A stretch of DNA of 64,000 nt from positions 78,591 to 142,590 of the forward strand of contig DAOUDG010000084.1 in the NCBI GenBank assembly GCA_034431435.1. Direction: 5' to 3'. The stretch is from Anaerolineae bacterium (lineage in GTDB: Bacteria; Chloroflexota; Anaerolineae; Epilineales; JAHCIE01). Shown piece after piece: positions 15,435 to 57,217 of the stretch; positions within the stretch are counted from its first letter, which is position 1, and the number at the start of each line of letters is the position of its first letter. The notes beneath the pieces were generated by a model. It did not search any database. It was not told the DNA's origin and worked only from the letters and a program-made list of their open reading frames with translations. Both the position numbers and the translations under genes were made by a program.

Positions 15435-15449
15435 GCCACCTTCGAAGGC

Positions 15450-16211: not shown

Positions 16212-16292
16212 GGTAGGCTCCCAGAACCACAGAGATGGGGGGCTGGCGACTATCGGCCACGCATTGGCCGCCAGTCGCCAAACACCCATCCG

Positions 16293-18854: not shown

Positions 18855-18898
18855 GACCAGGCCACTCTTCTACGGCGGCCAGCCAGCCGCCGAATGGG

Positions 18899-23612: not shown

Positions 23613-23615
23613 CCC

Positions 23616-25883: not shown

Positions 25884-26010
25884 AGACTCCTGGCGAGGCG
25901 AATTGTGGCGAATCTTAGCACGTTCCGCCACGCGCGGCAAAAAGGGCGCTACGTGTTTGTCGCCACGCCCCCCGGACGCTACAATTGGAGTCACTCACAG
26001 CGAGGAAACT

Positions 26011-31330: not shown

Positions 31331-32302
31331 ATGGCAAGCCAACCTCGCATCACCATCATCGGCACTGGCTTCGTCGGCACATCGCTGGGGCTGGGGCTGG
31401 TCAAGGCCCGTAGCCAGGGCAGCACCTACGCGGTCATCGGCCACGACCGAGACGCCAACATCAGCGGCGCAGCCAAGAAACGCGGCGCTGTCGACCGCGT
31501 CGAGTGGAATCTGCCCGCCTCGGTCGAGGGCGCGGACATGGTGTTTCTCGCCACGCCCGTCGAGGCGATGGAGGCTATCTTCGAGATCATCGCGCCCGCG
31601 CTCAAGCCCGGCGTCATCGTGACGGACACCGGCGGTACGAAGGCTGAGGTGATGCAGTGGGCGGCGGCCAGGCTGCCTAACTCCGTCAACTTCATCGGTG
31701 GTGACCCACTGCTTGGCCGCGACGGCTGGCGAACCGACGAGGCCAGCGCCGACGTCTTCCACGACACGCTCTACTGCCTCACCCCCGCCGTCAACGCTGA
31801 CGCCGACGCCATCCGCATCCTGGCCGACTTCGTGTCGAGCCTCGGCGCGCAGCCCTACTTCCTCGACCCGTTGGAGCACGACGGCATCGTGGGCGGCGTG
31901 ACGCATTTGCCGTTCCTCATGTCATGGGCGCTAGTGCGCGCGCTGGCGAACAGCCCCAGCTGGACCGAGGCCCAAAAGTCGGTCGGAGTGAACACGATGA
32001 TGATGGCGTCCCTTGTCGGGGCTTCGCCGTCCTACTGGGTGGGACCGGCCTTGACCAACGCCGCCGCCCTGGGCCACTGGATCGACGCGGCGGTCCGCGA
32101 ATTGCAGGCCCTCAAGGGCGCGCTGGCCGCCGGCGACCCCGACGAGATTCGCGGCGGGTTGGACAAGGCCGGCGCAGACTACCTGAAACTGGTGGCCCGC
32201 GGCCGCGAGGAGCACAACCCGCTTGAGGACATAGGCAGGGACCGGATGCGCCAGATGTTCTTGGGTGGGCTGGGTGCGAAGCGCCGGGACAAGGGCAGTT
32301 GA
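31331..32302 (+). CDS. tyrA: Prephenate/arogenate dehydrogenase
   Basis: ITIIGTGFVGTSLGLGL Rossmann N-terminus. TyrA catalytic blocks (GGDPLLGRDG, HDGIVGGVTHLPF). Confidence 0.85.
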   Translation: MASQPRITIIGTGFVGTSLGLGLVKARSQGSTYAVIGHDRDANISGAAKKRGAVDRVEWNLPASVEGADMVFLATPVEAMEAIFEIIAPALKPGVIVTDTGGTKAEVMQWAAARLPNSVNFIGGDPLLGRDGWRTDEASADVFHDTLYCLTPAVNADADAIRILADFVSSLGAQPYFLDPLEHDGIVGGVTHLPFLMSWALVRALANSPSWTEAQKSVGVNTMMMASLVGASPSYWVGPALTNAAALGHWIDAAVRELQALKGALAAGDPDEIRGGLDKAGADYLKLVARGREEHNPLEDIGRDRMRQMFLGGLGAKRRDKGS

Positions 32303-32547
32303 TGCCCATCGTCTACATGGTCGAGTGCCGCGACGGCTCCCTGTACACGGGCTGGACGACGGACCTGGCGGCGCGCGTGGCGGCTCACAACAACGGTACG
32401 GGTGCGCGCTACACACGCTCGCGGCGTCCCGTGCGCCTGGTCTACTGGGAGGAGGCCCCCAACCGCTCGGCGGCGCTGCGCCGCGAGGCAGTCCTGCGCC
32501 GCCTGCCGCGCGCCACGAAGCTGGCTTTGGTGAAACGTGAGGCGTGA
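32299..32547 (+). CDS. GIY-YIG nuclease-superfamily small protein (UPF0213/YhbQ-like)
   Basis: 82 aa: VYMVECRDGSLYTGWTTDLAARVAAHNNG...RREAVLRRL. ATGA overlap with the tyrA stop. Confidence 0.8.
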   Translation: MMPIVYMVECRDGSLYTGWTTDLAARVAAHNNGTGARYTRSRRPVRLVYWEEAPNRSAALRREAVLRRLPRATKLALVKREA

Positions 32548-32622
32548 GACGTGATGCCCGTAACGTGAGGCGTGAGAACCCTCGATGTACTTCACGCTGC
32601 ATTCATCCCGTCTCACGCCCCA
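32534..32622. repeat. Direct repeat AACGTGAGGCGTGAGA (x2) plus inverted copy TCTCACGCC, forming a hairpin spanning the GIY-YIG stop codon
   Basis: 32534-32549 and 32562-32577 are direct copies; 32611-32619 is the reverse complement. Possible terminator or regulatory stem-loop. Confidence 0.4.
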
Positions 32623-32656
32623 CGCATTACGCCCCGCACGACGATAGTTAGCCTTT

Positions 32657-33964
32657 ATGACTCACTCCACCCCCGCCGAGCATGACTCGGCCCTGCATGT
32701 CCTGATGGTCGCCCCGACGAGCTTCTTTGCCGACTACGGCTGCCATGTTCGCATCCTGGAAGAGGCTCGCGTCCTCCAGGCCCTCGGCCATCGGGTGACC
32801 ATCGTGACCTATGCCCAGGGCCGCGACGTAGCCGACGTGACCCTGCGCCGCACTGCGCCGCTGCCCTGGCACGCCGACTACGAGGTCGGCTCCTCGCGGC
32901 ACAAGTTCGCCTTCGACGCCTACCTCGCGCCCCTTGTCCTCCGCGTCGCCCGCTCATTGCGCCCCCACGTGGTTCACGGCCACCTGCACGAGGGCGCGCT
33001 GCTCGGCTGGCCCGCCGCGCGAATGCTGGGCGTACCCCTCATCTTCGACTACCAGGGGTCCATGACCGGCGAGATGCTCGACCACGGCTTCATCCAGCCC
33101 ACTGGCGCGGCGTATCGGCTGGCGCGCTGGGGCGAGGATCGTATCAACCGCCTGGCCGACGCCGTCATCACCAGCTCGACGCGCGCCGCCGATCAGTACA
33201 TGGCCGCGACGCCCGGGCGCGGGGCGCGGGCCGTGCCCGATGTGGTCAATCCCCACGTCTTCCACCCAGCAACCCTCACAGCCGACGAGCGGCGAGCACA
33301 GCGGGCGACGCTCGGCATCCCGCCAGACGCGGAGGTCGTCGTATACCTGGGTCTGCTTGCCCCGTACCAGGGCACCGACCACCTGCTACGCGCGGCAGCG
33401 CGGGTGTGCGCCACCCGGCCCGCCGCCCACTTCCTCGTCATGGGCTACCCGAATGTGGAACGCTACCGCGACCTGGCCGACCGTCTGGGCCTGGCGGGCC
33501 GCGTCACTTTCACAGGGCGCGTGCCCTACGAGGATGCGCCGCGCCGCCTCGCGCTGGGTGACGTGGCCGTGGCCCCCAAGCTGTCGAGTACCGAGGGCGC
33601 GGGCAAGCTGCTCAACTACATGGCGATGGGTCTGCCGACGGTCGCCTTCGACACCGAGGTGAGCCGTGAATATATGGGCGCTGCCGGGCTGTACGCCGTC
33701 CCCGGCGATGACGATGACCTGGCTGACCGCGTTGCCGCCATCCTGAGCGACCCCGACCGCGCTGTCGTGGGCCGTCGCCTCCGTGCCCACGTCACGCGCG
33801 CCTTCCCGTGGCAGGGGATGGGACAGGCCCTGCTGGATGTCTACGAGGAGGCGCGCGCGCGCCCCACGGGTTACCGCCCCGCGCCTGCGCCCGCTGCGGA
33901 GCTGCGCCCCGCGCGAGAGGAGCCGTCTTCCCCCGCCGTTTCGGCGGCCGGGAAGCGAGGATAG
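32657..33964 (+). CDS. GT4 family (group 1) glycosyltransferase
   Basis: GT-B N-terminus (VLMVAPTSFFADYGCHVR) and C-terminal EX7E-like region (GLPTVAFDTEVSREY). Confidence 0.85.
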   Translation: MTHSTPAEHDSALHVLMVAPTSFFADYGCHVRILEEARVLQALGHRVTIVTYAQGRDVADVTLRRTAPLPWHADYEVGSSRHKFAFDAYLAPLVLRVARSLRPHVVHGHLHEGALLGWPAARMLGVPLIFDYQGSMTGEMLDHGFIQPTGAAYRLARWGEDRINRLADAVITSSTRAADQYMAATPGRGARAVPDVVNPHVFHPATLTADERRAQRATLGIPPDAEVVVYLGLLAPYQGTDHLLRAAARVCATRPAAHFLVMGYPNVERYRDLADRLGLAGRVTFTGRVPYEDAPRRLALGDVAVAPKLSSTEGAGKLLNYMAMGLPTVAFDTEVSREYMGAAGLYAVPGDDDDLADRVAAILSDPDRAVVGRRLRAHVTRAFPWQGMGQALLDVYEEARARPTGYRPAPAPAAELRPAREEPSSPAVSAAGKRG

Positions 33965-33967
33965 AGC

Positions 33968-34807
33968 ATGACGGTCATGGTCAACCGCCGCCAGCAACGC
34001 CTGTCGGCGCGGCTGGCGGAGCTATGGCGCTATCGCGACCTGGTACGCAACCTGGCGTTGCGCGACCTCAAGGCGCGCTACAAAAGCTCGGTGCTGGGCT
34101 TTGTCTGGTCGCTGCTGAACCCGCTGCTGATGACGGTGGTCTTCACCATCGTCTTCACGGTCATGCTGCCTAGCAACATCGAGAAGTACCCGGTATTCAT
34201 CCTGGTGGGTCTGCTGCCGTGGAACTGGTTCTCTAGCTCCCTGTTCGGCTCTGTCCAGAGCATTGTCGGCAATGCCAATCTCGTGAAGAAGGTCTACTTC
34301 CCGCGCGAGGCGTTACCCACCGCCGTGGTCGTCGCCAATGGCGTCAATTTCCTGCTGGCGGGGATTGTCCTGTTCGCCCTGATTCTGATCTATCGTATTC
34401 CCATCACCGCCTGGGTGTTCTTCTTACCCGTCCTGGTTGTCATCCAGTTCGTGCTTACGCTGGGCCTCGGCCTGTTCGTGGCCGCCCTCAACGTGCGCTT
34501 TCGCGACACGGCTGTTATTCTGGAAGTCGTTCTCCAGGCCTGGTTCTTCCTCACCCCGGTTGTCTACGATATGCGGGTGCTGCCCGAGGCCAAGAACATC
34601 ATGGGTATGGACGTGGAAATACGCCGCTGGGCCTATATCCTCAATCCCATTGGGTCGCTCATCGCCAGCTACCGCGACATCCTATACTGGACGACACCAC
34701 CCGGCCTCGATTTCGTTGCCCGCACCGCCGTCGAATCGGCTATCATTCTGGTCGTCGGCTACCTGTTCTTCAACCGGCTGGCCCCCACCTTTGGCGAGGA
34801 TGTCTGA
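33968..34807 (+). CDS. wzm: ABC-2 type polysaccharide/O-antigen export permease (Wzm/KpsM/TagG-like)
   Basis: 279 aa, 6 TM, ABC-2 signature region (YKSSVLGFVWSLLNPLLMTVVF). Confidence 0.9.
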   Translation: MTVMVNRRQQRLSARLAELWRYRDLVRNLALRDLKARYKSSVLGFVWSLLNPLLMTVVFTIVFTVMLPSNIEKYPVFILVGLLPWNWFSSSLFGSVQSIVGNANLVKKVYFPREALPTAVVVANGVNFLLAGIVLFALILIYRIPITAWVFFLPVLVVIQFVLTLGLGLFVAALNVRFRDTAVILEVVLQAWFFLTPVVYDMRVLPEAKNIMGMDVEIRRWAYILNPIGSLIASYRDILYWTTPPGLDFVARTAVESAIILVVGYLFFNRLAPTFGEDV

Positions 34808-36177
34808 TGGCGGACCAGGCGACGCAGAACGGCGCGCTGGAACGGGAGGTCGCGGTCGAGTTCGACCATGTCTCCAAGCGGTTCACCCTGTACCACGACC
34901 GGCCGCGCTCGTTCCAGGAGTGGATGGTCGGCATGTTCCGCCGCGCCGAGCGCCACGAGGAGATGTGGGCGCTGCGCGATGTGAGCTTCCGTATCGGGCG
35001 CGGCGAGGTGGTGGCCTTCATCGGCTCCAACGGCGCGGGCAAGAGCAGCCTGTTGAAGCTGGTCAGCGGCATTCTCGCCCCGACCGAAGGCGCGGTTCGC
35101 GTCAACGGGCGCATCTCTGGCTTGTTGGAGTTGGGCGCGGGCTTTCACCCCGACCTGACGGGGCGTGAGAACGTGTACCTGAACGGCTCCATTCTCGGCC
35201 TCGACCGCCGCGAGGTGGATCGCCTCTTCCCGGCCATCGTTCGCTTCGCCGAGATGGAAGCCTTCATCGACATGCCTGTCAAGCACTACTCGTCGGGCAT
35301 GTACATGCGGCTGGGGTTCGCCGTCGCTATCCACTCCAAGCCGGATATCCTGCTGGTGGACGAGGTGCTGGCGGTAGGCGATGCCGCCTTCCAGGCCAAG
35401 TGTCTCAATCGCATCCTCGACCTCAAGAAGCGCGGCGCGACCATCCTGTTCGTCAGCCACGATCTAGACTCGGTCCGTAAGTTGTGTAACCGCGCCATAT
35501 GGATCGACCGCAGCCGGGTGCGCGCCGAAGGCCCGCCCGCGCAGGTCATCGCCGCCTACCTGGACAAGGTGGCCGCGCAGCAACTTGCTGACCGCGCCGA
35601 GGAGGACGCCGCCGAGGCGGTTGCGGCCGCGCCTGCTGCGGACAACCGGGCGGCGGACACGGTCACCCCCAATCCCCCGTCCCCAACCCCAAGCCCCTCC
35701 TCCGGCGCGCGCTGGGGGACGCGCCAGGTAGAGATCACCGCGGTCGAGTGCCTGGGCGCAGACGGCCAGCCGTCCGATGCCTTCGACACCGACGCGCCGT
35801 TCTGCGTGCGGATTCACTACGACGCCCATCAGCCCATCGAGCATCCCATGTTCGGCATCGCCATCCACCACGAGGAAGGCGCGCACGTGTCGGGGCCGAA
35901 CACCGTCTACGCGGGCTTCGACATCCCGCGCATCCACGGCGTTGGCTACGTCGACTACGCGGTGGACGCCTTGCCCCTGCTGGCGGGCCAGTACACACTG
36001 ACGGCGGCCATCTACGACCACTGGGAGACGGGCGCGTACGATCACCACGACCAGATGTACCGCTTCCGTGTCCGACCCGGCCATGCGGAGCGCTATGGCC
36101 TTGTCACCCTCAACGGGCGCTGGAGCGCGACCGTGGCCGAGGTGTCGACGCTATCCCTGGCCGAGGATGCGCCATGA
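34807..36177 (+). CDS. wzt: Polysaccharide/O-antigen ABC transporter ATP-binding protein with C-terminal glycan-binding domain (Wzt-like)
   Basis: Walker A GSNGAGKSSL, LSGGQ-like YSSGMYMRL, Walker B ILLVDE. About 160-aa beta-rich C-terminal extension (RQVEITAVECLGADGQ...YRFRVRP) like the O-PS terminal-residue-binding domain of E. coli O9a Wzt. Confidence 0.9.
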   Translation: MADQATQNGALEREVAVEFDHVSKRFTLYHDRPRSFQEWMVGMFRRAERHEEMWALRDVSFRIGRGEVVAFIGSNGAGKSSLLKLVSGILAPTEGAVRVNGRISGLLELGAGFHPDLTGRENVYLNGSILGLDRREVDRLFPAIVRFAEMEAFIDMPVKHYSSGMYMRLGFAVAIHSKPDILLVDEVLAVGDAAFQAKCLNRILDLKKRGATILFVSHDLDSVRKLCNRAIWIDRSRVRAEGPPAQVIAAYLDKVAAQQLADRAEEDAAEAVAAAPAADNRAADTVTPNPPSPTPSPSSGARWGTRQVEITAVECLGADGQPSDAFDTDAPFCVRIHYDAHQPIEHPMFGIAIHHEEGAHVSGPNTVYAGFDIPRIHGVGYVDYAVDALPLLAGQYTLTAAIYDHWETGAYDHHDQMYRFRVRPGHAERYGLVTLNGRWSATVAEVSTLSLAEDAP

Positions 36178-36767
36178 GCAGTCGCCCGACCGACGTGATC
36201 GAGATTCGGGACACAGCCGTCGATGTCGAGGCCTTGATGACGCTGATTCGCGACCGCGCCGCCCAACGGCGCGCCGGAGTCGATACCTCCCTGGACCTCG
36301 ACGCCACGACGCGCTCGGTGTTCGCGGCAGCGGGGGTCGCGCCAGCCGCCGACATCGACACCCGCCAGGCAATCCCGCTGCCCGCGACCCCGCCCCCCGG
36401 CCAGGAGACCCTGCCTGCCCTGCGGGACCTCAATGCCCAGTGGATGATTCGCGAGCAGCCCTTCACATCCAACGCCCCCCTGATTGGGCCGCTCATCGTC
36501 AGGGTGCGGGATGCCTGGAATTGGATGTCGACCAAGTGGTACGTGCGGCCCCTGCTCCAACAAATCACAGCCTTCAACCTGTCTGTCGTCCGCGCCTTCC
36601 GCGATGTCGAGGCGGAGCAGGGTCGCGTTGCCGACCGCATCCGCGATCTGGAAGCCCTGACGCGGCAACAGGCCGCCGAGATTGAGGCTCTACGCCACGA
36701 CGTGCAGCGCCTGCGCGCCGAGGGCCGCGCCGACGCGGGGCCAGAGGACCCCTACGCGCGCTCATGA
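36174..36767 (+). CDS. Hypothetical protein with conserved 'WNWMSTKWYVRPLLQQ' motif + C-terminal coiled coil (copy 1 of 3)
   Basis: ATGA overlap with the wzt stop. 197 aa. Motif EQPFTSNAPLIGPLIVRVRDAWNWMSTKWYVRPLLQQITAFN, then a heptad-like region (RIRDLEALTRQQAAEIEALRHDVQRLRAEG). Confidence 0.6.
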   Translation: MSSRPTDVIEIRDTAVDVEALMTLIRDRAAQRRAGVDTSLDLDATTRSVFAAAGVAPAADIDTRQAIPLPATPPPGQETLPALRDLNAQWMIREQPFTSNAPLIGPLIVRVRDAWNWMSTKWYVRPLLQQITAFNLSVVRAFRDVEAEQGRVADRIRDLEALTRQQAAEIEALRHDVQRLRAEGRADAGPEDPYARS

Positions 36768-37852
36768 CGACGGTGCATCAGCTGGCATCGTCGTTTGCGT
36801 ATGGGGACGCCATCACGAACCACATCCTCGCCCTGGATGCCGCGCTCCGCGACTGGGGCTACACGAGCCGCATCTATGCCGAGCGGGTAGAGTCGCGGTT
36901 GCACTCGCTGGCCCAGCCTGACTCGGCCTACCTGCCCGCCATCGAGCGACCCGACGACATCCTCATCTATCACTACTCGGCCTACTCGCCCAACACGCAA
37001 CTCTACCAGCGGTCCCGCAACCGGCGATTGTTGGTCTATCACAACATCACCCCGGCCGAGTACCTCGCCGCCTACGATGCCGACCTGGCGGCGGTCTGCC
37101 GCCTGGGGCGCGACGCATTGCCGCAACTGTGCGACGCCGACCTCGCCGTGGGAGTCTCCGACACCAACCGCCGCGAGCTACTGGCCGCCGGCTTCGACCC
37201 CCGGCGCGTCGCCGTCCTGCCCATCATTCTCAACCTGGCGACCTGGGACGCTACGCCGCCCAATGCGCGCCTCGCCGAGCGGCTATCGGACGGGCGGGTC
37301 AATATTCTCTTTGTGGGTCGTGTCGTGCCCAACAAGGCCTTCGAGGATGTGATCGCGATTTTCGCCGCCTATCGCCGCGCCATCCAGCCCCACGCGCGGC
37401 TGTCCCTGGTGGGAGCGCGCCTCCTGCCACGCTACAGCGCGGTCCTCGACCGGCTGGTAGAACGGCTAGGGCTGAGCGACGCCGTGACCTTCACTGACCG
37501 CGTCTCCCTCGCCGACCTGAGAGCCTACTACGACACGGCCCACGTCTTTCTGTCGGCGAGCCGCCACGAGGGCTTTTGCGTGCCCCTCCTGGAGAGCATG
37601 TACTTCGGTGTGCCCATCCTGGCCTACGCGGCGGCCGCCGTGCCCGAGACCCTGGGCGCGTCGGGGGTCGTGTATCACGCCTTCGACTACCCCGTGCTGG
37701 CCGAGACACTGCATCTCCTGGCGACCGACGGCCCGACGCGGGCCAGGCTCATCGCCGGGCAGCGGGCGCGGCTGGCCGACTTCGCCCCGCCGCTCGTCGC
37801 AGGCCAATGGCGTGTCGCGCTTGAGCAGGTGGCCGCCCCTGGCGCGCACTAG
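36764..37852 (+). CDS. GT4 family glycosyltransferase
   Basis: ATGA overlap with the previous stop. GT-B fold blocks (NILFVGRVVPNKAFEDVI; EGFCVPLLESMYFGVPILAYAAAAVPETLG). Confidence 0.85.
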   Translation: MTTVHQLASSFAYGDAITNHILALDAALRDWGYTSRIYAERVESRLHSLAQPDSAYLPAIERPDDILIYHYSAYSPNTQLYQRSRNRRLLVYHNITPAEYLAAYDADLAAVCRLGRDALPQLCDADLAVGVSDTNRRELLAAGFDPRRVAVLPIILNLATWDATPPNARLAERLSDGRVNILFVGRVVPNKAFEDVIAIFAAYRRAIQPHARLSLVGARLLPRYSAVLDRLVERLGLSDAVTFTDRVSLADLRAYYDTAHVFLSASRHEGFCVPLLESMYFGVPILAYAAAAVPETLGASGVVYHAFDYPVLAETLHLLATDGPTRARLIAGQRARLADFAPPLVAGQWRVALEQVAAPGAH

Positions 37853-37899
37853 CCATGCTTTTGCTTGGCGAACGGCGAACCTCGCGGTACAATACTCGC

Positions 37900-39078
37900 A
37901 TGCGTGTCTCCATCGTCGTACAGCGATACGGGCCGGACGTCCTGGGGGGAGCCGAGCGCCACGCGCGCCAGGTAGCCGAGCGGCTGGCCGAGCATTATGA
38001 GGTCCAGGCGTTGACGACCTGCGCCCACGACTACGCCACGTGGGCCAACGCCTATCCGCCGGGCGAGAGTGTGATCAACGGGGTGCGGGTGCTGCGCTTC
38101 CCGACCCTCCAGCCCCGCGCCACCAATCTGCCCCAGCTTTGGGACCGCGTTCACCTGCGCGTTCACACGTTGGCCGATGAGATGACGTGGCTGCGCGCCC
38201 AGGGTCCCTACGCGCCGGGGCTGCTGGATTACCTGCGTCAGCAGCGCGACGAGAGCGACGTCTTCATCTTCTTTACCTACCTGTACTACCCGACGGCGAT
38301 GGGCCTGCGCCTCGTCGCCGACAAGTCCATCCTCGTCCCCACCGCCCACGACGAGGACCCCATCTACCTCAACCTCTTCCGCGACGTGTTCCATTCACCG
38401 CGCGCCATCCTCTACAACACCGAGGAGGAGCGGCGCTTCGTCGAGCGCCACTTCGACAACGGCTATGTGCCCAACGCGGTGGTCGGTGTGGGCATCGACC
38501 TGCCGGACGCGCCGCAGCCCGAACGCTTCCGCGCCCGCTTCGGCCTGGACAGGCCCTATTTCCTGTACCTGGGGCGCATCGTGCCCGACAAAGGCTGCGC
38601 TGAGATGCTCGACTATTTCGACGCCTACCGTCGCGCCTTCCCCGACGAGGCGATTCTGACCCTGGTCGGCGCCGGCGAGATGCCGCTACCCAGCGCGCCC
38701 TGGCTGGTCCCGACCGGCTTCATCCACGACGAAGACAAGGTGGACGCCATCGCCGGCGCCGAGGCGGTCATCGTGCCCTCGCGCTACGAGAGCATGTCGC
38801 TAACCACCCTGGAAGCATGGAGCCTGGGGCGGCCTGTCGTCTGCACCGCCCACTCGCCGGTGGTGCGTGGGCTGGTGCGTCGCGCCGGGGGCGGCCTGTA
38901 CTACGGCGACAGCGACGAGTTCGTCGAGGCGTTGCACCTGTTAGTGTCGGACCGGGACACGGCAGATGGGTTGGGCCGCCAGGGCCGTAGCTTCACTCGC
39001 GCCACCTATCGCTGGCCGGAGGTAATCGCCACCTATCAGCAGTTCATTGAGGACATCGCCGCCCAGCCCTGGCGCTGA
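37900..39078 (+). CDS. GT4 family glycosyltransferase
   Basis: N-terminus MRVSIVVQRYGPDVLGGAERHARQ parallels MRILHIIQRYWPAVGGAERHLHE of the 42051 gene. C-terminal E..E GT4 block (YESMSLTTLEAWSLGRPVV). ORF-track start 37855 rejected in favour of the ATG at 37900. Confidence 0.85.
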   Translation: MRVSIVVQRYGPDVLGGAERHARQVAERLAEHYEVQALTTCAHDYATWANAYPPGESVINGVRVLRFPTLQPRATNLPQLWDRVHLRVHTLADEMTWLRAQGPYAPGLLDYLRQQRDESDVFIFFTYLYYPTAMGLRLVADKSILVPTAHDEDPIYLNLFRDVFHSPRAILYNTEEERRFVERHFDNGYVPNAVVGVGIDLPDAPQPERFRARFGLDRPYFLYLGRIVPDKGCAEMLDYFDAYRRAFPDEAILTLVGAGEMPLPSAPWLVPTGFIHDEDKVDAIAGAEAVIVPSRYESMSLTTLEAWSLGRPVVCTAHSPVVRGLVRRAGGGLYYGDSDEFVEALHLLVSDRDTADGLGRQGRSFTRATYRWPEVIATYQQFIEDIAAQPWR

Positions 39079-39094
39079 CGCGACGCACCCACCG

Positions 39095-40615
39095 ATGGCT
39101 GAGCCTACCGTCGCCGTTGGCCTCCTGACCTACAATGGCCGTGCCTTCGTCGAGGCCTGTCTGGCGTCCGTGCTGGCGCAGAGTCCCTCTGCTGACGAGT
39201 TCCTGGTAGTCGACAACGCCTCCACTGACGCAACCCCTGATGTGATCGCCGCTCGCTATCCCCAGGTTCCCCTTGTCCGGAACGACACCAACGTCGGTGT
39301 GGCGCTGGGCCTCAACCAGTTGGTGGCCGCGACGACGGCCCCCGTCGTCGTTCTCCTGAACCAGGATGTCGAACTGCGACTCGGCGCCCTGGCCGCCATC
39401 AGCGACGCCTTCGCCGACCCCCAGGTGGGTGTCGTCGGCATCAAGCTGCTCTACCCGGACGGGCGGACGATGCAACATGCCGGTGGCTGGCTAGAGTGGC
39501 CCCTATACCTGGCTCAACATTACGGCTACGGCCAGCCGGACGATGGTCGCTGGGATACGCCGGCCGAAGTCGATGTGGTCACGGGAGCTGTCTTCGCCGT
39601 CCGCCGCGTGGCATGGGATGCCCTGGGCGGCATGTCCGACCTGTTCTCACCGGCCTACTTCGAGGAGACCGACTTCTGCCTGCGGGCGCGGGGAGCAGGC
39701 TGGAAGGTTGTCTATGCCCCGGCCGCCATCGCGCTGCACCACGAGTCCACTACCCTGGGGCGGGGCAGCCGTCGCTACCTGGACCTCTATCACAACCATC
39801 GGTTGCGCCTGGCGCTCCGCCACGGTTCCATCGACCACCTGCTGACCTATTTCGCCCGCGCCGAGGCGCGCCGCACGGCCCACCTGCGGCAGCTGCCCGA
39901 GGCCGCCGACGAGGTGGCCGCGCTGACGGCTGCCTACGCCGACGCGCGTCGCCAGTGGCCGATCCTGGCGGCCACGCGCGGCGATGCGCCCCTGTCGCCC
40001 GGCGCCATGTGGGCCATCGATGAGATGCTGACCGCGCTGCACGGCCTGGCCGAGACCTGTGGCGACGCCGACGGCTGGAAGCGGCTGGTGTTGCCGTCAA
40101 CGGCTCTGCTGCGCACGCGGGATGCCATCCTCGCCAGTGATCCGACGCACGCGCGGGGGGAACTGCGGCCCAACGCGGCCGCGACGCAGGCGGCGCTGGC
40201 GGCGTTGGCTGCCGCTCAGACCGTCCACGAGCAGCCCTTCCGGTCGGATGCCCCGCTGGTGGGGCCGCAGATTGCCCGGATGCGGGACAGCTGGAACTCG
40301 GTGTCAACCAAGTGGTACGTCCGCCCGCTACTAGAGCAACAGAATCGCTTCAACGCGGCCGTCACCGCCGCGCTTCGCGCGCTGACCGAGGAGGTCGAGG
40401 GCCGCGACGGCCTGGAAATCAGCCTCTCGGCCGCGCTGCGCGAGATGCTGGCAGTCATGGAGGAGATGCGCACGGCCCAGGAGGCGCTGCGCTTCGACCT
40501 CGACGCGCTTCACGCGCGCGAGGATGCCCGCTACGCCGAACTGTCGGCGCGCCTCGATGCCCTTGCCGGGCAGCCACCGACCACCGACGACGACTCGGTC
40601 ATCCCGAATCCCTAG
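39095..40615 (+). CDS. GT2 family glycosyltransferase fused to C-terminal conserved-motif + coiled-coil module (copy 2 of 3)
   Basis: GT-A N-terminus (VAVGLLTYNGRAFVEACLASVLAQ...VVDNASTD...DVELR). C-terminal region repeats EQPFRSDAPLVGPQIARMRDSWNSVSTKWYVRPLLEQQNRFN, followed by a coiled coil. Confidence 0.8.
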   Translation: MAEPTVAVGLLTYNGRAFVEACLASVLAQSPSADEFLVVDNASTDATPDVIAARYPQVPLVRNDTNVGVALGLNQLVAATTAPVVVLLNQDVELRLGALAAISDAFADPQVGVVGIKLLYPDGRTMQHAGGWLEWPLYLAQHYGYGQPDDGRWDTPAEVDVVTGAVFAVRRVAWDALGGMSDLFSPAYFEETDFCLRARGAGWKVVYAPAAIALHHESTTLGRGSRRYLDLYHNHRLRLALRHGSIDHLLTYFARAEARRTAHLRQLPEAADEVAALTAAYADARRQWPILAATRGDAPLSPGAMWAIDEMLTALHGLAETCGDADGWKRLVLPSTALLRTRDAILASDPTHARGELRPNAAATQAALAALAAAQTVHEQPFRSDAPLVGPQIARMRDSWNSVSTKWYVRPLLEQQNRFNAAVTAALRALTEEVEGRDGLEISLSAALREMLAVMEEMRTAQEALRFDLDALHAREDARYAELSARLDALAGQPPTTDDDSVIPNP

Positions 40616-40632
40616 TCTCCAATCGCTCATCA
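40590..40632. repeat. Intergenic copy of the CCGAATC...CTCCAATC repeat family
   Basis: tcatcccgaatccctagtctccaatcgctcatc between the GT2 fusion and the next GT4 gene. Related to the 23538-23612 repeat. Confidence 0.4.
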
Positions 40633-40639
40633 CCTGCCC

Positions 40640-42007
40640 ATGTCCGACCCTTCCTTTCGCCATCGCCTACGCCGCCTGCGCGCCGCCTGGCGCGACACCA
40701 CACCCGCCGCGGAGACCGATGCGCGGGCTACCCAGGCCGACTTGCGCGCAGCCGAGCACGCGCTCCTCGCCGTCCAACGCCAGATCGCCACGCTGACGGC
40801 GCGTGTCGCGGCCCTCGAGGACGGCATCAACGCCCTGCGGCGGACCCACGTGCGGCCGCGCGTGGCGTTCTTCAGCCCCCTCACGCCCCAGGCCAGCGGC
40901 ATCGCTGCCTACAGCGAGGCGCTGCTGCCCGCCCTGGCCGCCCTGGCCGACGTGGACGTCTACGTAAGTGACGTGACGCCCACGTCGCCCGCGCTGACGT
41001 CCCTGCCCGTCTTCGACTATCGCGCCTATCCCGCCCGCCGCCGGGCGCAGGCCTACGACGCGACCTTCTACCAGATGGGCAACGACGTTCGCTATCATCG
41101 CTTTATCTACGCTACCCTGGCCCGCTACCCAGGGGTGGTGGTTCTGCACGAGTTCCTGCTGCACCACTTTATGGCGGGCTATACCCTGGACCACGGGCAG
41201 CGCGTCGACTATCCGTGGGAGGTGGGCTACGCCGCTGGGCAGGACGCTCTGGCCGTCGCTCGCGCCGCTGAACGGGGCGAGCGCGAGCTGCCCTTCTTCG
41301 ACTATCCCCTGGTGGAGCACGTATTGGACCTGAGCCAGGGGGCGTTGTGCCACAGCCACTACGTCCGCGATTCCGTCGCCGCCACCCGCCCTGATCTGCC
41401 CGTCGCGGTCGTGGCTCACCCGACAACCGTCACCGCGGCCGCGCGCCCGCTGGTCGCCGACCATCCCTTCACGGTCATCACCGCTGGCTACCTCACGCCG
41501 GCCAAGGGCCTGCTGCCTGCCCTGGAGGGCTTCGCCGAGTTCGCCCGCGCCGTGCCTGGGGCGCGCTACGTGCTGGTGGGGGCAGTCGAGCCGGAGTTCG
41601 ACCTGGCGGCCTGGATTCGCGACAGTGGCGTCGCCGACCGCGTCGAGCTACGCGGCTACGCGCCGACCCTGGAGGGCTTCGACGCTCAGGTGGCCGAGGC
41701 GGACGTCTGTCTCAACCTGCGCTACCCGACCGGCGGCGAGACATCCGGTAGCCTGCTGCGGGTGCTGGGGGTGGGGGTGCCGGCCGTCGTTACCGATAGC
41801 GGCTGGTTCAGCGAGGTTCCCGATACCGTCGTCGTCAAGATAGCCGCGCCGCCGACGCGGGACGCCGTCGCGGGCGCGCTGCGCGCTCTGGCGAATCCTG
41901 ACCGCCGCGCCGCCATGTCGACCGCCGCCCGGCAGTGGGTGGCGGAGGCTCACAACCCGGCTCGCACCGCCCAGGGCTACCTGGACTTCGTCGCCGCCCT
42001 CACGTAA
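40640..42007 (+). CDS. GT4 family glycosyltransferase with N-terminal coiled-coil segment
   Basis: N-terminal about 60 aa heptad-like (ADLRAAEHALLAVQRQIATLTARVAALEDGINALRR), then a GT-B fold (VAFFSPLTPQASGIAAYSEALL...). Confidence 0.8.
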   Translation: MSDPSFRHRLRRLRAAWRDTTPAAETDARATQADLRAAEHALLAVQRQIATLTARVAALEDGINALRRTHVRPRVAFFSPLTPQASGIAAYSEALLPALAALADVDVYVSDVTPTSPALTSLPVFDYRAYPARRRAQAYDATFYQMGNDVRYHRFIYATLARYPGVVVLHEFLLHHFMAGYTLDHGQRVDYPWEVGYAAGQDALAVARAAERGERELPFFDYPLVEHVLDLSQGALCHSHYVRDSVAATRPDLPVAVVAHPTTVTAAARPLVADHPFTVITAGYLTPAKGLLPALEGFAEFARAVPGARYVLVGAVEPEFDLAAWIRDSGVADRVELRGYAPTLEGFDAQVAEADVCLNLRYPTGGETSGSLLRVLGVGVPAVVTDSGWFSEVPDTVVVKIAAPPTRDAVAGALRALANPDRRAAMSTAARQWVAEAHNPARTAQGYLDFVAALT

Positions 42008-42050
42008 CCTGGCGCGCGGCCCCTTAGCGCGCCGCAGCGGCTGCCACATC

Positions 42051-43355
42051 ATGCGTATCCTGCACATCATCCAGCGTTACTGGCCCGCCGTGGGCGGAGC
42101 CGAGCGCCATCTGCACGAAATCAATCGGCGGCTCGTCGCCGACGGCCACTCCGTCACCGTCTTCACCACCGACGCCGACGACTTCGCGGCCTTCTGGGAT
42201 CCGCGCAAGCCGCGCCTCGCCACCCGCCGCGACCTTCACGACGGCGTGGTTATTCGCCGCTTCCCCCTGCGTCACCTGCCGGCCGCCCCGTTCACCTACC
42301 CCGCCGTCCGCCGCCTCATGGCGACCCTGTCCGACCTGCCTCTGGACACGACCTCGGCCCTGACCGCCATCGGCCGCTTCACACCCTGGGCGCCCGAACT
42401 GGCCGCCGAGCTGGCTGTCGCCGCGCCGGCCTGGGACGTGGCGGGCGGCATGACCGTCACCTACGACAGCCTGTTGTGGCCCGCGGCGCGCTGGGCGGCG
42501 CGCTGGCGCCGCCCCTGGCTCTTCTATCCGCTGACCCATCTCGGCGAGGGGCCAGGCTCGACCATGCGCCGCTACTACACGATGCGCCACCAACTGGAAC
42601 TGAGCCGCCGCGCCGCGACGGTCTTCGCCCAGACCGAGACGGAGAGCCGCTTCCTGGCCGGCCAGGGCGTCGACCCCGACCGCCTCGTCGTCGCCGGGGT
42701 GGGCATCAACCCGGCCGAGTATGTCGGCGGCGACGCCGCGCGGGGCCGCGCCCGGCTGGGACTCGCGCCGGGGACGCCCCTGGCGCTATCCCTCGGCACG
42801 GCCAGCCGCGACAAAGGCAGCCTCACGACCCTGGCCGCGCTGCGGCGGCTGTGGGCGGCGGGCCACCCGGCCCACTGGGTCGTGGCGGGCGCGGCGCAGG
42901 ACGATTTCACCCGCGCCCTCGACCGCCTGCCGCCCGTCTACCGTAGTCGAGTTCACGTCCTGGGCCGGGTGGACGAGGCGGCGAAGCAGGACTGGTTGGC
43001 CGCCGCCGATGTCCTGGCCATGCCCTCGCGCGCCGACTCCTTTGGCATTGCCTACCTGGAGGCCTGGGCCTACGGCCGACCGGTCATCGGCGCGCGCGTC
43101 GGCGGCATCCAGGATGTGATTCAGGCTGGCGACGATGGCCTGCTGGTCGCCTTCGGCGATAGCGGCGCTCTGGCGGTGGCTCTGGCGACGCTGCTCGACG
43201 ACCCGGCCAGGGCGCGGACGATGGGGGCGCGGGGGCGGGCGAAGGTGATGGCTCGCTACACCTGGGACGCCGTGTATGCTCGCGTGCGCCCGGCCTACGC
43301 GGCAGCGGGCCGAGATTGGCCCCCCGCGAGCGGCGGGACTACAATACGCGCATGA
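42051..43355 (+). CDS. GT4 family glycosyltransferase
   Basis: MRILHIIQRYWPAVGGAERHLHEINRRLVADGHSVTVFT...; C-terminus ADSFGIAYLEAWAYGRPVIGARVGGIQDVI. Confidence 0.85.
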   Translation: MRILHIIQRYWPAVGGAERHLHEINRRLVADGHSVTVFTTDADDFAAFWDPRKPRLATRRDLHDGVVIRRFPLRHLPAAPFTYPAVRRLMATLSDLPLDTTSALTAIGRFTPWAPELAAELAVAAPAWDVAGGMTVTYDSLLWPAARWAARWRRPWLFYPLTHLGEGPGSTMRRYYTMRHQLELSRRAATVFAQTETESRFLAGQGVDPDRLVVAGVGINPAEYVGGDAARGRARLGLAPGTPLALSLGTASRDKGSLTTLAALRRLWAAGHPAHWVVAGAAQDDFTRALDRLPPVYRSRVHVLGRVDEAAKQDWLAAADVLAMPSRADSFGIAYLEAWAYGRPVIGARVGGIQDVIQAGDDGLLVAFGDSGALAVALATLLDDPARARTMGARGRAKVMARYTWDAVYARVRPAYAAAGRDWPPASGGTTIRA

Positions 43356-43831
43356 GTGAACGACGTGTGAACGGCGCGGCCGATGCGCGGCCTGCGTCGA
43401 CCGAGCGCCAGGCGCGGGCCGAAGCGGCGCTCCGCGACGCCCTCGCCGCCCGCCGCCGGGCCGTTGCGCCGCCCGGTTGGGACGACGCCGCCTTGAATCG
43501 CGGCGCGGTACGCATGGAAGCCGCAGCCAACGTCAACCCGCATCAGCCGATTGCCTGGCCCACCTGGCCGCCGGGTCTCGTCCCCAAACTGACGGCGGCG
43601 GCGCAGAAGACGCTGCGGCGCGGCCTGCGCTGGTACATCGACCCTATCGTCGCCCAACAGAACGACTTCAACCGCGCCAGCGCCGACACGGCCCAGGAGA
43701 TGCGCGAGTTGCTGCGCGCCCTGGCCGTGGAGAATGCGCGCCTGACGCGGCGGCTCGCCGAGGTCGAGGCGCGCCTGGCCGACCTGGAGAGCGAGGTCGC
43801 GCCACCTGTCCCCCCCCCAACCCCGCTATGA
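43352..43831 (+). CDS. Hypothetical protein with degenerate copy of the conserved motif + coiled coil (copy 3 of 3)
   Basis: ATGA overlap with the preceding stop. PGLVPKLTAAAQKTLRRGLRWYIDPIVAQQNDFN, then a coiled coil (MRELLRALAVENARLTRRLAEVEARLADLESE). Confidence 0.5.
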   Translation: MSERRVNGAADARPASTERQARAEAALRDALAARRRAVAPPGWDDAALNRGAVRMEAAANVNPHQPIAWPTWPPGLVPKLTAAAQKTLRRGLRWYIDPIVAQQNDFNRASADTAQEMRELLRALAVENARLTRRLAEVEARLADLESEVAPPVPPPTPL

Positions 43832-44880
43832 AACACATTATCGTCTGCAACGCCCAGGTTCCGTTCCATCAAGGCGGGGCCGAAATTCATGCCGACGGCC
43901 TGGTGCACGCCCTGCGCGCGCACGGCCACGCTGTGGAGCAGGTCAACCTGCCCTTTGCCGACTACCCACGCGCCGAGATCCTCAAGGGCGCGCTGGCCTG
44001 GCGACTGTTGAGCCTCGAAACCATCATGGGTAGCTCCGACAGGGTAGACGCGGTCATCTGCCTCAAGTACCCGTCCTACGTCGCCCAGCATCCCCACAAG
44101 ATCGTGTGGCTCATCCATCAGTACCGCGCCGCCTACGACCTGCTAGGCACAGCGTACAGCGACCTGCGTGACAGCGCCGAGGATCGCCGCGTCATCCGCA
44201 TGCTGCGCCGGATGGACAACAAAGCCCTCGGCGAGGCGAAGGCGCTGTACACCAACGCGCGCAACACAGCCCAGCGGCTGGCGCGCTACAACGGCCTGCA
44301 CGCCGCGCCCCTGTACCACCCGCCTCAGTACGTGGGCCGCTACCGCTGCGACAGCTACGGTGACTTCATTTTCACCGTATCGCGTCAAGATCCACTCAAG
44401 CGCGTCGATCTGCTCATCCGCGCCGCCGCCCTCACGCCGGCCCACATTCGGGTCGCCATTGCCGGGCGCGGCCCGCTGCTGGAAGAGCACATGGCCCTGG
44501 CGCGGGACCTCGGCATCGCCGACCGCGTCGACTTCCTCGGCTTCGTGGACGAGGAGCAGTTGCTGGACCTCTACGCCCGCTGCGCCGGCGTCTACTACGC
44601 GCCCTACGACGAGGACTACGGCTACGTCACCCTGGAAGCCTTTATGTCCGCCAAGCCCGTGCTGACGGCCACCGACTCGGGCGGGCCGCTGGAATTCGTC
44701 ACCGACGGCGAGTCCGGCGTCGTCTTCGCGCCGGACGATGTGGCCGCCCTGGCGCGCGGCATGCAGCGCCTGATAGACGACCGCCGCGCGGCCCAGCGCA
44801 TGGGCGAGGCGGGCTTCGAGCGCGTCAAGGGCATCACCTGGGACCACGTGGTCGAGACGCTAACGCGGGGCATCCCATGA
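43828..44880 (+). CDS. GT4 family glycosyltransferase
   Basis: ATGA overlap. MKHIIVCNAQVPFHQGGAEIHADGL...; C-terminal GT4 E-x7-E block (DEDYGYVTLEAFMSAKPVLTATDSGGPLEFV). Confidence 0.85.
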   Translation: MKHIIVCNAQVPFHQGGAEIHADGLVHALRAHGHAVEQVNLPFADYPRAEILKGALAWRLLSLETIMGSSDRVDAVICLKYPSYVAQHPHKIVWLIHQYRAAYDLLGTAYSDLRDSAEDRRVIRMLRRMDNKALGEAKALYTNARNTAQRLARYNGLHAAPLYHPPQYVGRYRCDSYGDFIFTVSRQDPLKRVDLLIRAAALTPAHIRVAIAGRGPLLEEHMALARDLGIADRVDFLGFVDEEQLLDLYARCAGVYYAPYDEDYGYVTLEAFMSAKPVLTATDSGGPLEFVTDGESGVVFAPDDVAALARGMQRLIDDRRAAQRMGEAGFERVKGITWDHVVETLTRGIP

Positions 44881-45071
44881 ACGACCCGCTCATTGACGCC
44901 CTGGCCGACCTGCTGGCCGCCCTCGACTTCAGCGAGGACGACGAGCCGGTCATCAGCGCCCTGGCCGCCGCCCTGGTCGATCTCGACCTGGACGCAGACG
45001 AGCCACGCGGTACGCCCGACATCGCCGCGACCGAAGGCGATTCTGCGCTGCCCCGCCCAGCGCAAGACTGA
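44877..45071 (+). CDS. Small acidic hypothetical protein (64 aa), translationally coupled to the last GT4 gene
   Basis: ATGA overlap with the upstream stop. MNDPLIDALADLLAALDFSEDDEPVISALAAALVDLDLDADEP... No known domain. Confidence 0.35.
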   Translation: MNDPLIDALADLLAALDFSEDDEPVISALAAALVDLDLDADEPRGTPDIAATEGDSALPRPAQD

Positions 45072-45120
45072 GTCGGTAATGCGCTCGCGGCGGATGTGGC
45101 CATCCGCCGCGAGCGCAGAC

Positions 45121-45699
45121 CTACCGGCCCGGCGACAGCACGGCCGCGATGCGTTTGCCCGCCGCCGAATCCTCGATGAGGGTCGCCAGCCGCCTCTGGC
45201 GCGTCTCTTCGCGCTTGGCGCTCATCACCCACCAGCTCGCGTTGCGGCGGTAGCCCGGCGGCTGCGCCTGCCAGAAGGCCCACGCCGTTGGGTTCGCCTG
45301 TAATTGCGCCTCGTAAGTCGGGTCGAGACCCTGGCTACGCTGCTCGTAGGAGTACTGCCGCGATTTCACCTCGTCGCGGGCCGCGAAGGCGGCCAGGCCG
45401 GGCGGGGCCATGCGCCCCATCGCCGTCAACTCCTCCACGCGCTGGATGTTCACGCCGCTCCAGATGCTGCCCACCCTGCGCGGCGAGAAGCGGATGGTGT
45501 AGCTCTCAGCGCCCAGACTCTTGCGCACGCCGTCAATCCAGCCGAAGGCCAGCGCCTCGTCTAGCGCCGCAGCGTAGGTGATGCCGCCCCGGCCCGACGC
45601 CTTCTTGTGGAAGCCGAGCAGCAACGCGGTCGCGGCGGCGTGATTGTCGGCGAGCCACGCCCGCCACGCCTCCCCATCGGCAAAGAACACCGGCTCCAT
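45121..45699 (-). CDS. YdeI/OmpD-associated family protein
   Basis: FADGEAWRAWLADNH...LLGFHKKASGRGGITYAAALDEALAFGWIDGVRKS...YTIRFSPRR matches the YdeI family consensus. Confidence 0.7.
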   Translation of the reverse strand: MEPVFFADGEAWRAWLADNHAAATALLLGFHKKASGRGGITYAAALDEALAFGWIDGVRKSLGAESYTIRFSPRRVGSIWSGVNIQRVEELTAMGRMAPPGLAAFAARDEVKSRQYSYEQRSQGLDPTYEAQLQANPTAWAFWQAQPPGYRRNASWWVMSAKREETRQRRLATLIEDSAAGKRIAAVLSPGR

Positions 45700-57202: not shown

Positions 57203-57217
57203 TTGTTCGGAGCCTGC

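Follow-up and report, generated by a model that had tools for sequence, protein, structure and literature searches.

The twelve genes at positions 32657-45071 of a 64 000 nt stretch of contig DAOUDG010000084.1 (GenBank assembly GCA_034431435.1, positions 78 591 to 142 590 of the forward strand; the whole stretch is referred to here as the window) raise the question of what several coiled coils are doing among the glycosyltransferases of a pathway that exports its product through an ATP-binding cassette (ABC) transporter. Nearly all that is understood of ABC-dependent glycans comes from a small number of enterobacterial O-antigens, where one coiled-coil protein couples capping of the chain to its polymerisation and measures its length, and the window comes from the Chloroflexota, which are abundant, mostly uncultured and poorly known in their envelope chemistry. 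The region is a single operon of an uncultured Anaerolineae-type member of this phylum and is ordinary in kind as an ABC-dependent glycan cluster. Its genes, designated g1 to g12 in order and all on the plus strand, encode the permease Wzm, the ATPase Wzt with a carbohydrate-binding domain, seven glycosyltransferases and three non-enzymatic proteins, and include four coiled-coil segments. The feature that distinguishes this otherwise ordinary member of a known pathway type is an unannotated coiled-coil tether that is present in several copies, and this feature is real and reproducible. The locus suggests that Chloroflexota keep the logic of the transporter and spread the enzymes over many small genes, each served by a copy of the tether, and the split, fused and multiplied forms described here should be useful and somewhat surprising to glycobiologists.

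A repeated coiled-coil module and its partners

The initial annotation had listed the coiled-coil proteins of this cluster as unrelated items. Comparison of their sequences gave a different picture, as g4, the C-terminus of g7 (the last approximately 150 residues) and g10 are paralogous copies of one conserved and unannotated module, here named CORE-cc; nothing else in the locus is as informative. In blastp comparisons with the C-terminal part of g7, g4 was matched at 4e-24 and g10 at 6e-5, and a hidden Markov model (HMM) of the core detected g4 (1.7e-35), g7 (4.6e-30) and g10 (4.4e-21). The module consists of a motif of approximately 45 residues, E.PF.S.P..GP.IV.VR..WNWMSTKWYVRP..QQ..FN or, with the alternatives included, E.PF.S.P..GP.IV.VR..WN.(M/V)ST(K/T)WY(V/I).P....QQ..(F/x)N, that runs into a long heptad-repeat helix. 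Two family alignments were used, A1 with 25 sequences and A2 with 145; W122 and Y123 are invariant in all 145 sequences of A2, and Q130 and N135 are invariant in the 25 sequences of A1 and at least 90 % conserved in A2.

The first copy, g4 (36174-36767; 197 aa), is a stand-alone CORE-cc protein with the motif at aa 86-135 (nt 36429-36578), and is translationally coupled by ATGA overlaps to wzt upstream and to g5 downstream. It was modelled by AlphaFold from 145 sequences (predicted local distance difference test score, pLDDT, of 80) as one unbroken helix from residue 105 to 187, mostly above pLDDT 90, with the motif at its start. The motif of the second copy lies at nt 40187-40378 within g7, and the third, g10 (43352-43831; 159 aa), is a divergent stand-alone protein (motif at nt 43499-43696) that retains the invariant W-Y, Q and N residues and is translationally coupled in the same way to g9 and g11. 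Heptad patterns were found in g4, g7, g8 and g10.

No Pfam or NCBIfam family corresponds to CORE-cc, neither g4 nor g10 has a family assignment of its own (Pfam and NCBIfam for g4, Pfam for g10), and none of the 63 relatives from the first search had a precomputed Pfam assignment. In the profile search the same held for all but one of the 120 relatives listed, the exception (P0137) having only glycosyltransferase domains. When 1.84 billion representative proteins were searched exhaustively with the HMM, 673 clusters were retrieved at E<=1e-10 and 1633 at E<=1e-3, the weakest of which may include some coiled-coil noise. Hence, the family comprises at least approximately 670 clusters at 50 % identity and deserves a domain entry. 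A second search with the family profile, this time word-indexed, yielded only small, closely related proteins and no new architectures; those described below came from the exhaustive search. An attempt to find a solved structure for the module failed, since the A1 profile matched only generic coiled coils (tektin, GCN4, BST2) in the PDB, where residues 1-600 of WbdD were among the sequences searched.

To examine the genomic context, a narrow peptide pattern was scanned over one genome per species, and this retrieved 59 loci, every one of them from Chloroflexota metagenome-assembled genomes (Anaerolineae, Ardenticatenaceae, Promineifilaceae, Thermoflexales and Ca. Leptofilum). When the core HMM was applied to the six-frame open reading frames (ORFs) of these loci, 109 CORE ORFs were found, between 1 and 5 per locus and nearly all on one strand, including 64 stand-alone small proteins and 28 GT2-CORE fusions like g7. 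A glycosyltransferase gene comes directly after 54 of the 64 stand-alone genes, and these downstream genes are most often g8-like (24) or g5-like (18), with fewer that are g11-like (4), GT2 (4), g6-like (3) or g9-like (1). A g8-like gene directly follows a GT2-CORE gene in eight cases, and the order CORE then g11-like, as in the window, recurs in L017, L037, L039 and L053. A Wzt with the binding domain is encoded within 10 kb of CORE in 26 loci, and the gene next after wzt bears CORE in the window and in 17 of the 19 loci with an identified neighbour.

The copies also sort by partner. The nearest CORE relative from another locus has the same class of partner in 79 % of cases, compared with 27 % in shuffles (maximum 44 %). 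Such sorting shows long-term co-inheritance of cognate CORE/glycosyltransferase pairs but not, by itself, binding. On gene order, g5 is the cognate partner of the g4-type CORE-cc and g11 that of the g10-type.

Several longer family members carry an enzyme in the same chain. A Pfam scan found CORE-cc followed by a class I S-adenosylmethionine-dependent methyltransferase in P0190, P0191, P0199, P0238 and P0254, and the other architectures were GT2-CORE, GT4-CORE (P0157), CORE-GT4 (P0213) and GT2-CORE-cc-GT4 (P0269, 862 aa). The N-terminal half of P0269 shares 55 % identity with g7 residues 22-473, and its residues 430-858 share 54 % identity with g8 residues 34-454. Because P0269 aligns with both, g7 and g8 are, as judged from these alignments, two halves of a single polypeptide found elsewhere, and the C-terminal coiled coil of g7 and the N-terminal coiled coil of g8 jointly occupy the place of the single central helix region of P0269. 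The same alignment begins at the ATG at 39095, which is for that reason most likely the start of g7 instead of the TTG at 39047.

Among the 59 loci, CORE-methyltransferase fusions are found in L036, L043, L049 and L055, and in the first two the fusion gene lies directly upstream of a g8-like glycosyltransferase gene, which is the slot that g7 takes in the window. These fusions explain why two Joint Genome Institute records call CORE proteins of approximately 190 residues ‘O-antigen chain-terminating methyltransferase’, a label that they seem to have acquired by way of the shared tether.

Two further arrangements were seen. Three of the CORE-cc-methyltransferases, P0199 (534 aa) and those at 8292-10340 in L049 and 9854-11566 in L055, include an extra C-terminal immunoglobulin-like domain (N_BRCA1_IG, 6e-6) that recalls the carbohydrate-binding module reported in the terminator of Klebsiella pneumoniae O7 (Kelly et al. 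2024, PMC11231755). Tandem CORE motifs occur in one protein at 9143-10492 in L011 (449 aa) and 8489-9817 in L040 (442 aa), and at 5241-7631 in L022 a protein of 796 aa combines two tandem motifs with a glycosyltransferase domain. The tandem proteins are a further sign that CORE modules act together.

The transporter and the glycosyltransferases

All twelve ORFs that the initial annotation had placed on the plus strand were recovered at the same positions with the codon-position G+C pattern of real genes, in a window whose G+C content is 64-73 % throughout. Most of the junctions reported as overlapping proved to be so, with four-base ATGA overlaps at 36174, 36764, 43352, 43828 and 44877 and a one-base TGATG overlap at 34807 (wzm/wzt). 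The junction at 33964/33968 (g1/g2) is a 3 nt spacer, and the remaining intergenic gaps are 2, 16, 24 and 43 nt. The assignment of the cluster to ABC-dependent glycan assembly and export, with Wzm, Wzt and seven glycosyltransferases, was also borne out, both by the Pfam domains of the proteins and by the match of g3 to a Wzt of solved structure.

The permease is g2 (33968-34807; 279 aa), an ABC-2 protein of the Wzm type (Pfam ABC2_membrane, 3.2e-13, 50.1 bits against a cut-off of 26.9), for which the best NCBIfam match is the galactan export permease Wzm/RfbD (2.9e-20, under the cut-off of that family). The ATPase, g3 (34807-36177; 456 aa), matches both ABC_tran (8e-20) and Wzt_C (6.3e-27) and is laid out as a nucleotide-binding domain (aa 1-265), a long Ala/Pro-rich linker and a carbohydrate-binding domain (aa ~300-456; nt 35674-36174). 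In the PDB the nucleotide-binding domain is closest to Wzt of Aquifex aeolicus (8dku, 1.6e-70), followed by the TarH/TagH teichoic-acid exporters (1e-57 to 1e-58). The A. aeolicus WzmWzt complex (cryo-electron microscopy structures 7k2t and 8dku) is therefore the closest solved relative of this domain and its C-domain has the same fold as that of g3 (8dky, 6o14), though the likeness is limited to the transporter; the C-domain in 8dky is bound to 3-O-methyl-D-mannose, and the two domains of g3, unlike those of A. aeolicus, are separated by the long linker.

The C-terminal extension of g3 had been likened to the domains that recognise O-polysaccharide (O-PS) chains, and this resemblance was upheld. 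The Wzt_C match scores 94.7 bits against a cut-off of 30.4 and covers profile positions 3-142 of 143, and PF14524 is carried by 13 of 13 database relatives of the domain. When the C-terminal 167 residues were compared with the PDB using phmmer no direct sequence match was found, and a profile built from 24 Chloroflexota C-domains falls in register with residues 282-390 of the Escherichia coli O9a Wzt at a weak 7.3 bits. As direct sequence comparison with the PDB domains was too weak, the identity of the domain was settled by Pfam and by a fold search. An AlphaFold model built from 14 sequences (pLDDT 86, predicted template modelling (TM) score, pTM, 0.81) has ten strands, and in a Foldseek search with it the matches ranked 1-17 were all Wzt carbohydrate-binding domains (5hno, 2r5o, 5hnp, 8dky, 6o14, 8dku and 7k2t; TM 0.62-0.72), led by 5hno (E 8e-10, TM 0.71) and 2r5o (E 3.5e-9, TM 0.72). 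The next class, RhoGDI, is four orders of magnitude weaker. On its profile match and predicted fold, the extension is a genuine O-PS-type carbohydrate-binding domain, though the fold scores do not separate relatives that bind 3-deoxy-D-manno-oct-2-ulosonic acid (Kdo), methyl-phosphate or methyl-mannose.

Pfam domains of GT1/GT4 type score above the gathering threshold in six proteins, g1, g5, g6, g8, g9 and g11, and a GT2 domain does so in g7. The GT4 enzyme g1 (32657-33964; 435 aa; Glycos_transf_1 4.6e-24, Glyco_trans_4_4 1e-18) is the conserved first gene before wzm, with the order g1-wzm-wzt also found in L017, L020, L037 and L053; in L032, L047 and L059, g1 adjoins wzm and wzt lies 3-4 kb downstream. 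Two further GT4 enzymes, g6 (37855-39078; 407 aa; Glyco_trans_1_4 5e-16, Glyco_transf_4 4e-7) and g9 (42051-43355; 434 aa; Glyco_trans_1_4 6e-26, Glyco_trans_4_4 2e-12), lie directly upstream of g7 and of g10, respectively, and another, g11 (43828-44880; 350 aa; Glycos_transf_1 4.8e-29), follows g10. The enzyme that follows g4, g5 (36764-37852; 362 aa), is GT4-like with a GT1-type C-domain (Glycos_transf_1, 3.7e-24), and both it and g8 were recognised as GT-B enzymes through their C-terminal domains. That of g8 (40640-42007; 455 aa) is a weak GT1-type match (7e-8), and the GT4-like enzyme is preceded by an N-terminal coiled coil with a heptad region at aa ~25-72 in which 85 % of the a/d positions are hydrophobic.

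The remaining glycosyltransferase, g7 (39095-40615; 506 aa), joins a GT2 domain (Glyco_tranf_2_3, 6.5e-18), a helical linker, the CORE motif and a coiled coil, the last with a weak Pfam match to TolA_bind_tri at 443-512. Its catalytic domain belongs to GT2 (PF13641/PF00535) and not to GT99, and a sequence search of the PDB gave only eight weak matches of GT2 type (best E 1.6e-4), with no Kdo transferase or WbbB among them. An attempt to assign specific activities to the seven enzymes failed, as the g7 matches are weak and no glycosyltransferase came near any NCBIfam equivalog cut-off (glycogen, trehalose, mycothiol, sucrose or other pathways). On the last result, these enzymes are not those of unrelated pathways such as glycogen, trehalose or mycothiol synthesis.

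Among the twelve operon proteins Pfam detects no Wzx or Wzy family, and no methyltransferase, kinase or WecA/WbaP-type enzyme (PF00953, PF02397) was found in any plausible ORF of the window. The initial annotation had remarked on the missing initiating transferase, and none was indeed found in the 64 kb. This is not unusual and does not exclude membership of the pathway, because the prototype O9 cluster of E. coli HS (manC, manB, wzm, wzt, wbdD, wbdA, wbdB and wbdC) also includes no initiating transferase.

Proposed roles of tethers and caps in chain length

In every characterised system with a Wzt carbohydrate-binding domain, the chain is capped and the terminator is a coiled-coil protein, and in the enterobacterial prototypes the domain goes with chains capped at the non-reducing end. 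An extended coiled coil on an enzyme is the marker of a terminator or ruler protein, including terminators that are glycosyltransferases, and the polymerase modules are either fused to the coiled-coil terminator or recruited as separate polypeptides that form complexes (Kelly et al. 2024, PMC11231755). From the transporter, its binding domain and the enzyme-coiled coil-enzyme geometry of g7/g8 we infer an ABC transporter-dependent, cap-controlled glycan pathway in which several coiled-coil tethers, instead of one, assemble the enzymes, and we consider this explanation on balance probable.

In such a pathway the glycan would be assembled on the cytoplasmic face of the membrane and exported via Wzm/Wzt. 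By extension from the characterised systems with a Wzt domain of this kind, the chain would be finished with a non-reducing-end cap, Wzt would read the cap before export, and a coiled-coil protein would tie capping to polymerisation and so fix the chain length. The CORE-cc modules would be catalysis-independent tethers that gather g5, g7, g8 and g11 into a polymerase/terminator complex beside the exporter, a role that in enterobacteria falls to single coiled-coil proteins with several modules (WbdD with WbdA; WbbB). Among the enzymes encoded here, the strongest candidate for a capping transferase is the GT2 domain of g7. Both the enzyme that initiates the chain and the acceptor that finally receives it would be encoded elsewhere; an S-layer protein, the wall or a lipid might serve as that acceptor. 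The claim that no terminator is recognisable stands for methyltransferases and kinases but was too strong overall, as g7, with a GT2 domain and a coiled coil, fits the published marker (PMC11231755). Likewise, the chain-length control that was called non-canonical is better regarded as the coiled-coil ruler in modified form, with several tethers in place of one.

The product may be an S-layer glycan, a wall polymer or a lipoglycan; the operon includes no sugar-nucleotide genes, those of the rml group included. Chloroflexota are generally regarded as being without lipopolysaccharide (LPS), and an LPS O-antigen is hence an unlikely product. If CORE-cc modules do assemble enzymes, they would provide a sequence marker for such pathways in metagenomes, their natural split and fused variants could be used to test how ruler complexes are constructed, and they might serve as portable tethers for glyco-engineering.

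By analogy, the locus would work like the O9a (WbdA/WbdD) and O12 (WbbB) systems while belonging to neither protein family. With the polymannose clusters of E. coli O9a and K. pneumoniae O3 it shares an ABC-2 permease, a Wzt with the same C-terminal fold (2r5o, TM 0.72), GT4 enzymes, a coiled-coil component and an initiating transferase encoded outside the cluster. In O9a WbdA is the polymerase, WbdD the terminator and ruler, and WbdB and WbdC the adaptor transferases, whereas the operon here includes no methyltransferase-kinase and has four short coiled coils on four proteins in place of one long one. The likeness to WbbB of K. pneumoniae O12 and Raoultella terrigena, which combines a terminating Kdo-transferase, a coiled coil and two polymerising glycosyltransferases in one chain and is served by a Wzt that binds the Kdo cap, is seen in the best structural match of the g3 C-domain, which is the O12 domain (5hno), and in the layout of g7 plus g8, which is found literally in the fused P0269. 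However, the g7 enzyme is GT2 (GT-A) and not GT99, the chain is split over two genes, and the pairs g4-g5 and g10-g11 have no counterpart there.

The WbbB terminator is a glycosyltransferase and not a methyltransferase, and orthologues of the O7 terminator with variable glycosyltransferase fusions have been reported from cyanobacteria and proteobacteria (PMC11231755). The O4 and O7 systems of K. pneumoniae (Kelly et al. 2024, PMC11231755) resemble this locus in that activities are spread over several polypeptides, which interact in O4/O7, and in that a coiled coil marks the terminator, but each of their clusters has a single coiled-coil protein, termination falls to a GT137 or methyltransferase-kinase enzyme, and no CORE-like motif has been described in them.

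A literature search on Wzm/Wzt in Chloroflexi found nothing relevant. S-layer glycan (slg) clusters of Gram-positive bacteria of the Geobacillus stearothermophilus type encode Wzm/Wzt, the rhamnosyltransferases WsaC-F, a methyl cap and WsaB, an oligosaccharyltransferase of Wzy_C type. They are ABC-dependent systems for a capped glycan in a bacterium without LPS, as the present locus would be, and a Wzy_C-family protein that could pass the glycan on to its acceptor is encoded in the window 9 kb upstream. In contrast, the Wzy_C gene here lies outside the operon, and the rml genes have no counterpart within it.

A number of observations weigh against the tethered, cap-controlled pathway. Adjacency, fusion and co-inheritance fit a complex but would fit other shared roles too. 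The helix of g4, at 83 residues and approximately 12 nm, is short, as are the other coiled coils here, when set against the WbdD heptad region of roughly 120-130 residues, and we know of no precedent among characterised rulers for four coiled coils in one cluster. With all filters off, the CORE HMM has no match in WbdD of E. coli HS (O9), including the C-terminal region that binds the membrane and WbdA, so homology to the one well-studied ruler was rejected. The order of domains varies among the fusions (GT2-CORE-cc as opposed to CORE-cc-methyltransferase and CORE-cc-GT4), and thus no single geometry identifies the terminator. The absence of methyltransferases and kinases from operon and window counts on the same side, as do two loci in which the expected transporter is not seen, L061, where a CORE gene has no ABC transporter within 10 kb, and the shorter L062, where CORE lies beside a 259 aa ABC ATPase without Wzt_C. 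The restriction to Chloroflexota may also be an artefact of the narrow pattern used in the scan.

A more elaborate form of the tethering pathway, speculative and rather doubtful, is that the CORE-cc modules of g4, g7 and g10 and the coiled coil of g8 form a hetero-oligomeric helical bundle that docks via the CORE motif onto Wzt/Wzm and holds the four glycosyltransferases at fixed positions, as an assembly-line scaffold that fixes both the order of the sugars and the length of the chain. Such a scaffold, if real, would be distinct from the single homo-oligomeric ruler of the WbdD/WbbB kind and would be widespread in the envelope biogenesis of Chloroflexota.

Of the competing explanations, the one that survives best, possible although on the whole unlikely, is that CORE-cc modules are adaptors that dock soluble glycosyltransferases to the membrane or to Wzm/Wzt and so couple synthesis to export, and measure no chain. 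The regularity with which a CORE-bearing gene follows wzt, in the window and in all but two of the 19 informative loci and often with a four-base overlap, is consistent with this, as is the Trp/Tyr-rich character of the motif (WNWMSTKWYVRP), which interfacial segments often share. Conservation also extends over every motif residue instead of following a single face of the helix, a pattern suggestive of a docking surface that is buried. A membrane-anchoring amphipathic helix was not supported, however, as the hydrophobic moment, a crude measure, is 0.17-0.44 for the motif (0.17 for g4 105-125) compared with 0.76 for the C-terminal membrane helix of WbdD, and the CORE proteins include no transmembrane segment. 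A simple membrane-anchor role is hence disfavoured, while docking onto Wzt is a live rival. L061 and L062 fit poorly with docking to this exporter, and the sorting of paralogues by glycosyltransferase class is better explained by enzyme-specific partners than by one shared dock.

It is also conceivable, if doubtful, that two pathways have been joined by rearrangement, with g4-g5-g6 inserted into g1-wzm-wzt-g7-g8-g9-g10-g11-g12, and that the operon makes two glycans or a primer and a polymer. The closest syntenic loci (L017, L020, L037 and L053) run g1-wzm-wzt-GT2CORE-g8-g9-CORE-g11-g11-g12, with a CORE gene and a g6-like gene further downstream and no g4-g5 pair after wzt, and a g4-g5-g5-g6 block stands alone after wzt or elsewhere in L005-L008 and L012. 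Against this, the twelve genes of the window are tightly packed or overlapping on one strand with no internal terminator signal above chance, both blocks share one tether family and a single transporter, and the use of different glycosyltransferase sets for adaptor and polymer regions is normal within one ABC-dependent pathway, as for WbdB/WbdC and WbdA in E. coli O9a.

Least probable of all is the terminator-free view of the initial annotation, in which glycan length is not set by capping, the Wzt C-domain binds an internal or lipid-proximal feature and the coiled coils only oligomerise individual enzymes, as they do in many stand-alone glycosyltransferases. This would suit a cluster and window with no methyltransferase, kinase or known Kdo-transferase family, seven glycosyltransferases of which none could be given a specific activity and a C-domain only weakly matched in sequence to that of O9a (7.3 bits). 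Against it, the characterised domains always accompany a capped chain and a coiled-coil terminator (PMC11231755), the C-domain has a strong fold match to cap-binding domains, the slot of g7 is taken in relatives by the CORE tether joined to a methyltransferase, the classic kind of terminator, and g7 and g8 taken as one chain mirror the enzyme-coiled coil-enzyme layout of WbbB and ORF6(O7).

Operon boundaries and neighbouring genes

The last gene, g12 (44877-45071; 64 aa), encodes a small acidic protein with no Pfam family. It is probably a real gene, since three related loci (L017, L037 and L053) conserve its N-terminal 40 residues behind a g11-like gene. An antisense ORF (44622-45065, minus strand; 147 aa) lies across the whole of g12 and the last part of g11, has a G+C content of 0.89 at third codon positions and belongs to no Pfam family; as g12 is conserved in the plus frame, this ORF is probably an artefact of high G+C.

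Beyond g12, a perfect 17 bp GC-rich hairpin at 45072-45128, between the convergent g12 and OmdA/YdeI genes, likely ends the operon (dG -46.4 kcal/mol, z -8.1; none of 200 shuffles was equally stable). Consensus scans for promoters and terminators inside the operon gave counts not above those of shuffles. At the other end, a structured leader on the plus strand (32541-32619; predicted RNA fold with dG -43.7 kcal/mol, z -4.0) lies between the upstream GIY-YIG gene and g1, and GTGAGGCGTGAGA is present three times within 32537-32623, in two direct copies and one inverted copy that make up the stem, compared with 0.12 copies expected, and nowhere else in the window. As GTGAGGCGTGAGA is absent from all 65 related loci, nothing supports its conservation as an operator, and this idea was dropped. 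An Rfam search over the operon and leader gave no match.

Several neighbouring genes may bear on the glycan. Four adjacent genes on the minus strand at 22092-25994 encode a Wzy_C/O-antigen-ligase-type membrane protein (22092-23612; 506 aa), a small EamA-like protein (129 aa), a DegT/ArnB-type aminotransferase and an ArnC-like GT2 enzyme. This set resembles a polyprenyl-phosphate amino-sugar modification system with a ligase, and the exported glycan might be decorated or attached by it. Near the CORE genes of the 59 scanned loci no Wzy_C, DegT or ArnC-like genes were found; in the separately fetched L062 a Wzy_C-TPR gene lies near the CORE fusion. A glycolipid glycosyltransferase of the GT28/monogalactosyldiacylglycerol synthase-like type is encoded on the minus strand at 28607-29776, 3 kb upstream of the operon, and is syntenic only in the closest relatives (L017, L020 and L037). 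The enzyme might provide a glycolipid anchor, although the conserved position could also be due to chance.

The GIY-YIG domain protein mentioned above (32299-32547, plus strand; 82 aa) is encoded between a prephenate dehydrogenase gene and the glycan operon. Downstream, a UvrD/PcrA helicase gene (57203-60568, plus strand; 1121 aa) is split by an intein, with Hint and Intein_splicing domains between the N- and C-terminal helicase domains. A partner-switching module on the minus strand at 12951-19234 includes two GAF-GAF-SpoIIE (PP2C) phosphatases (827 and 853 aa), an HATPase_c_2-STAS fusion and a stand-alone STAS anti-anti-sigma-like protein, and a 409 aa protein with two chagasin-type (I42) peptidase inhibitor domains is encoded on the minus strand at 20592-21821.

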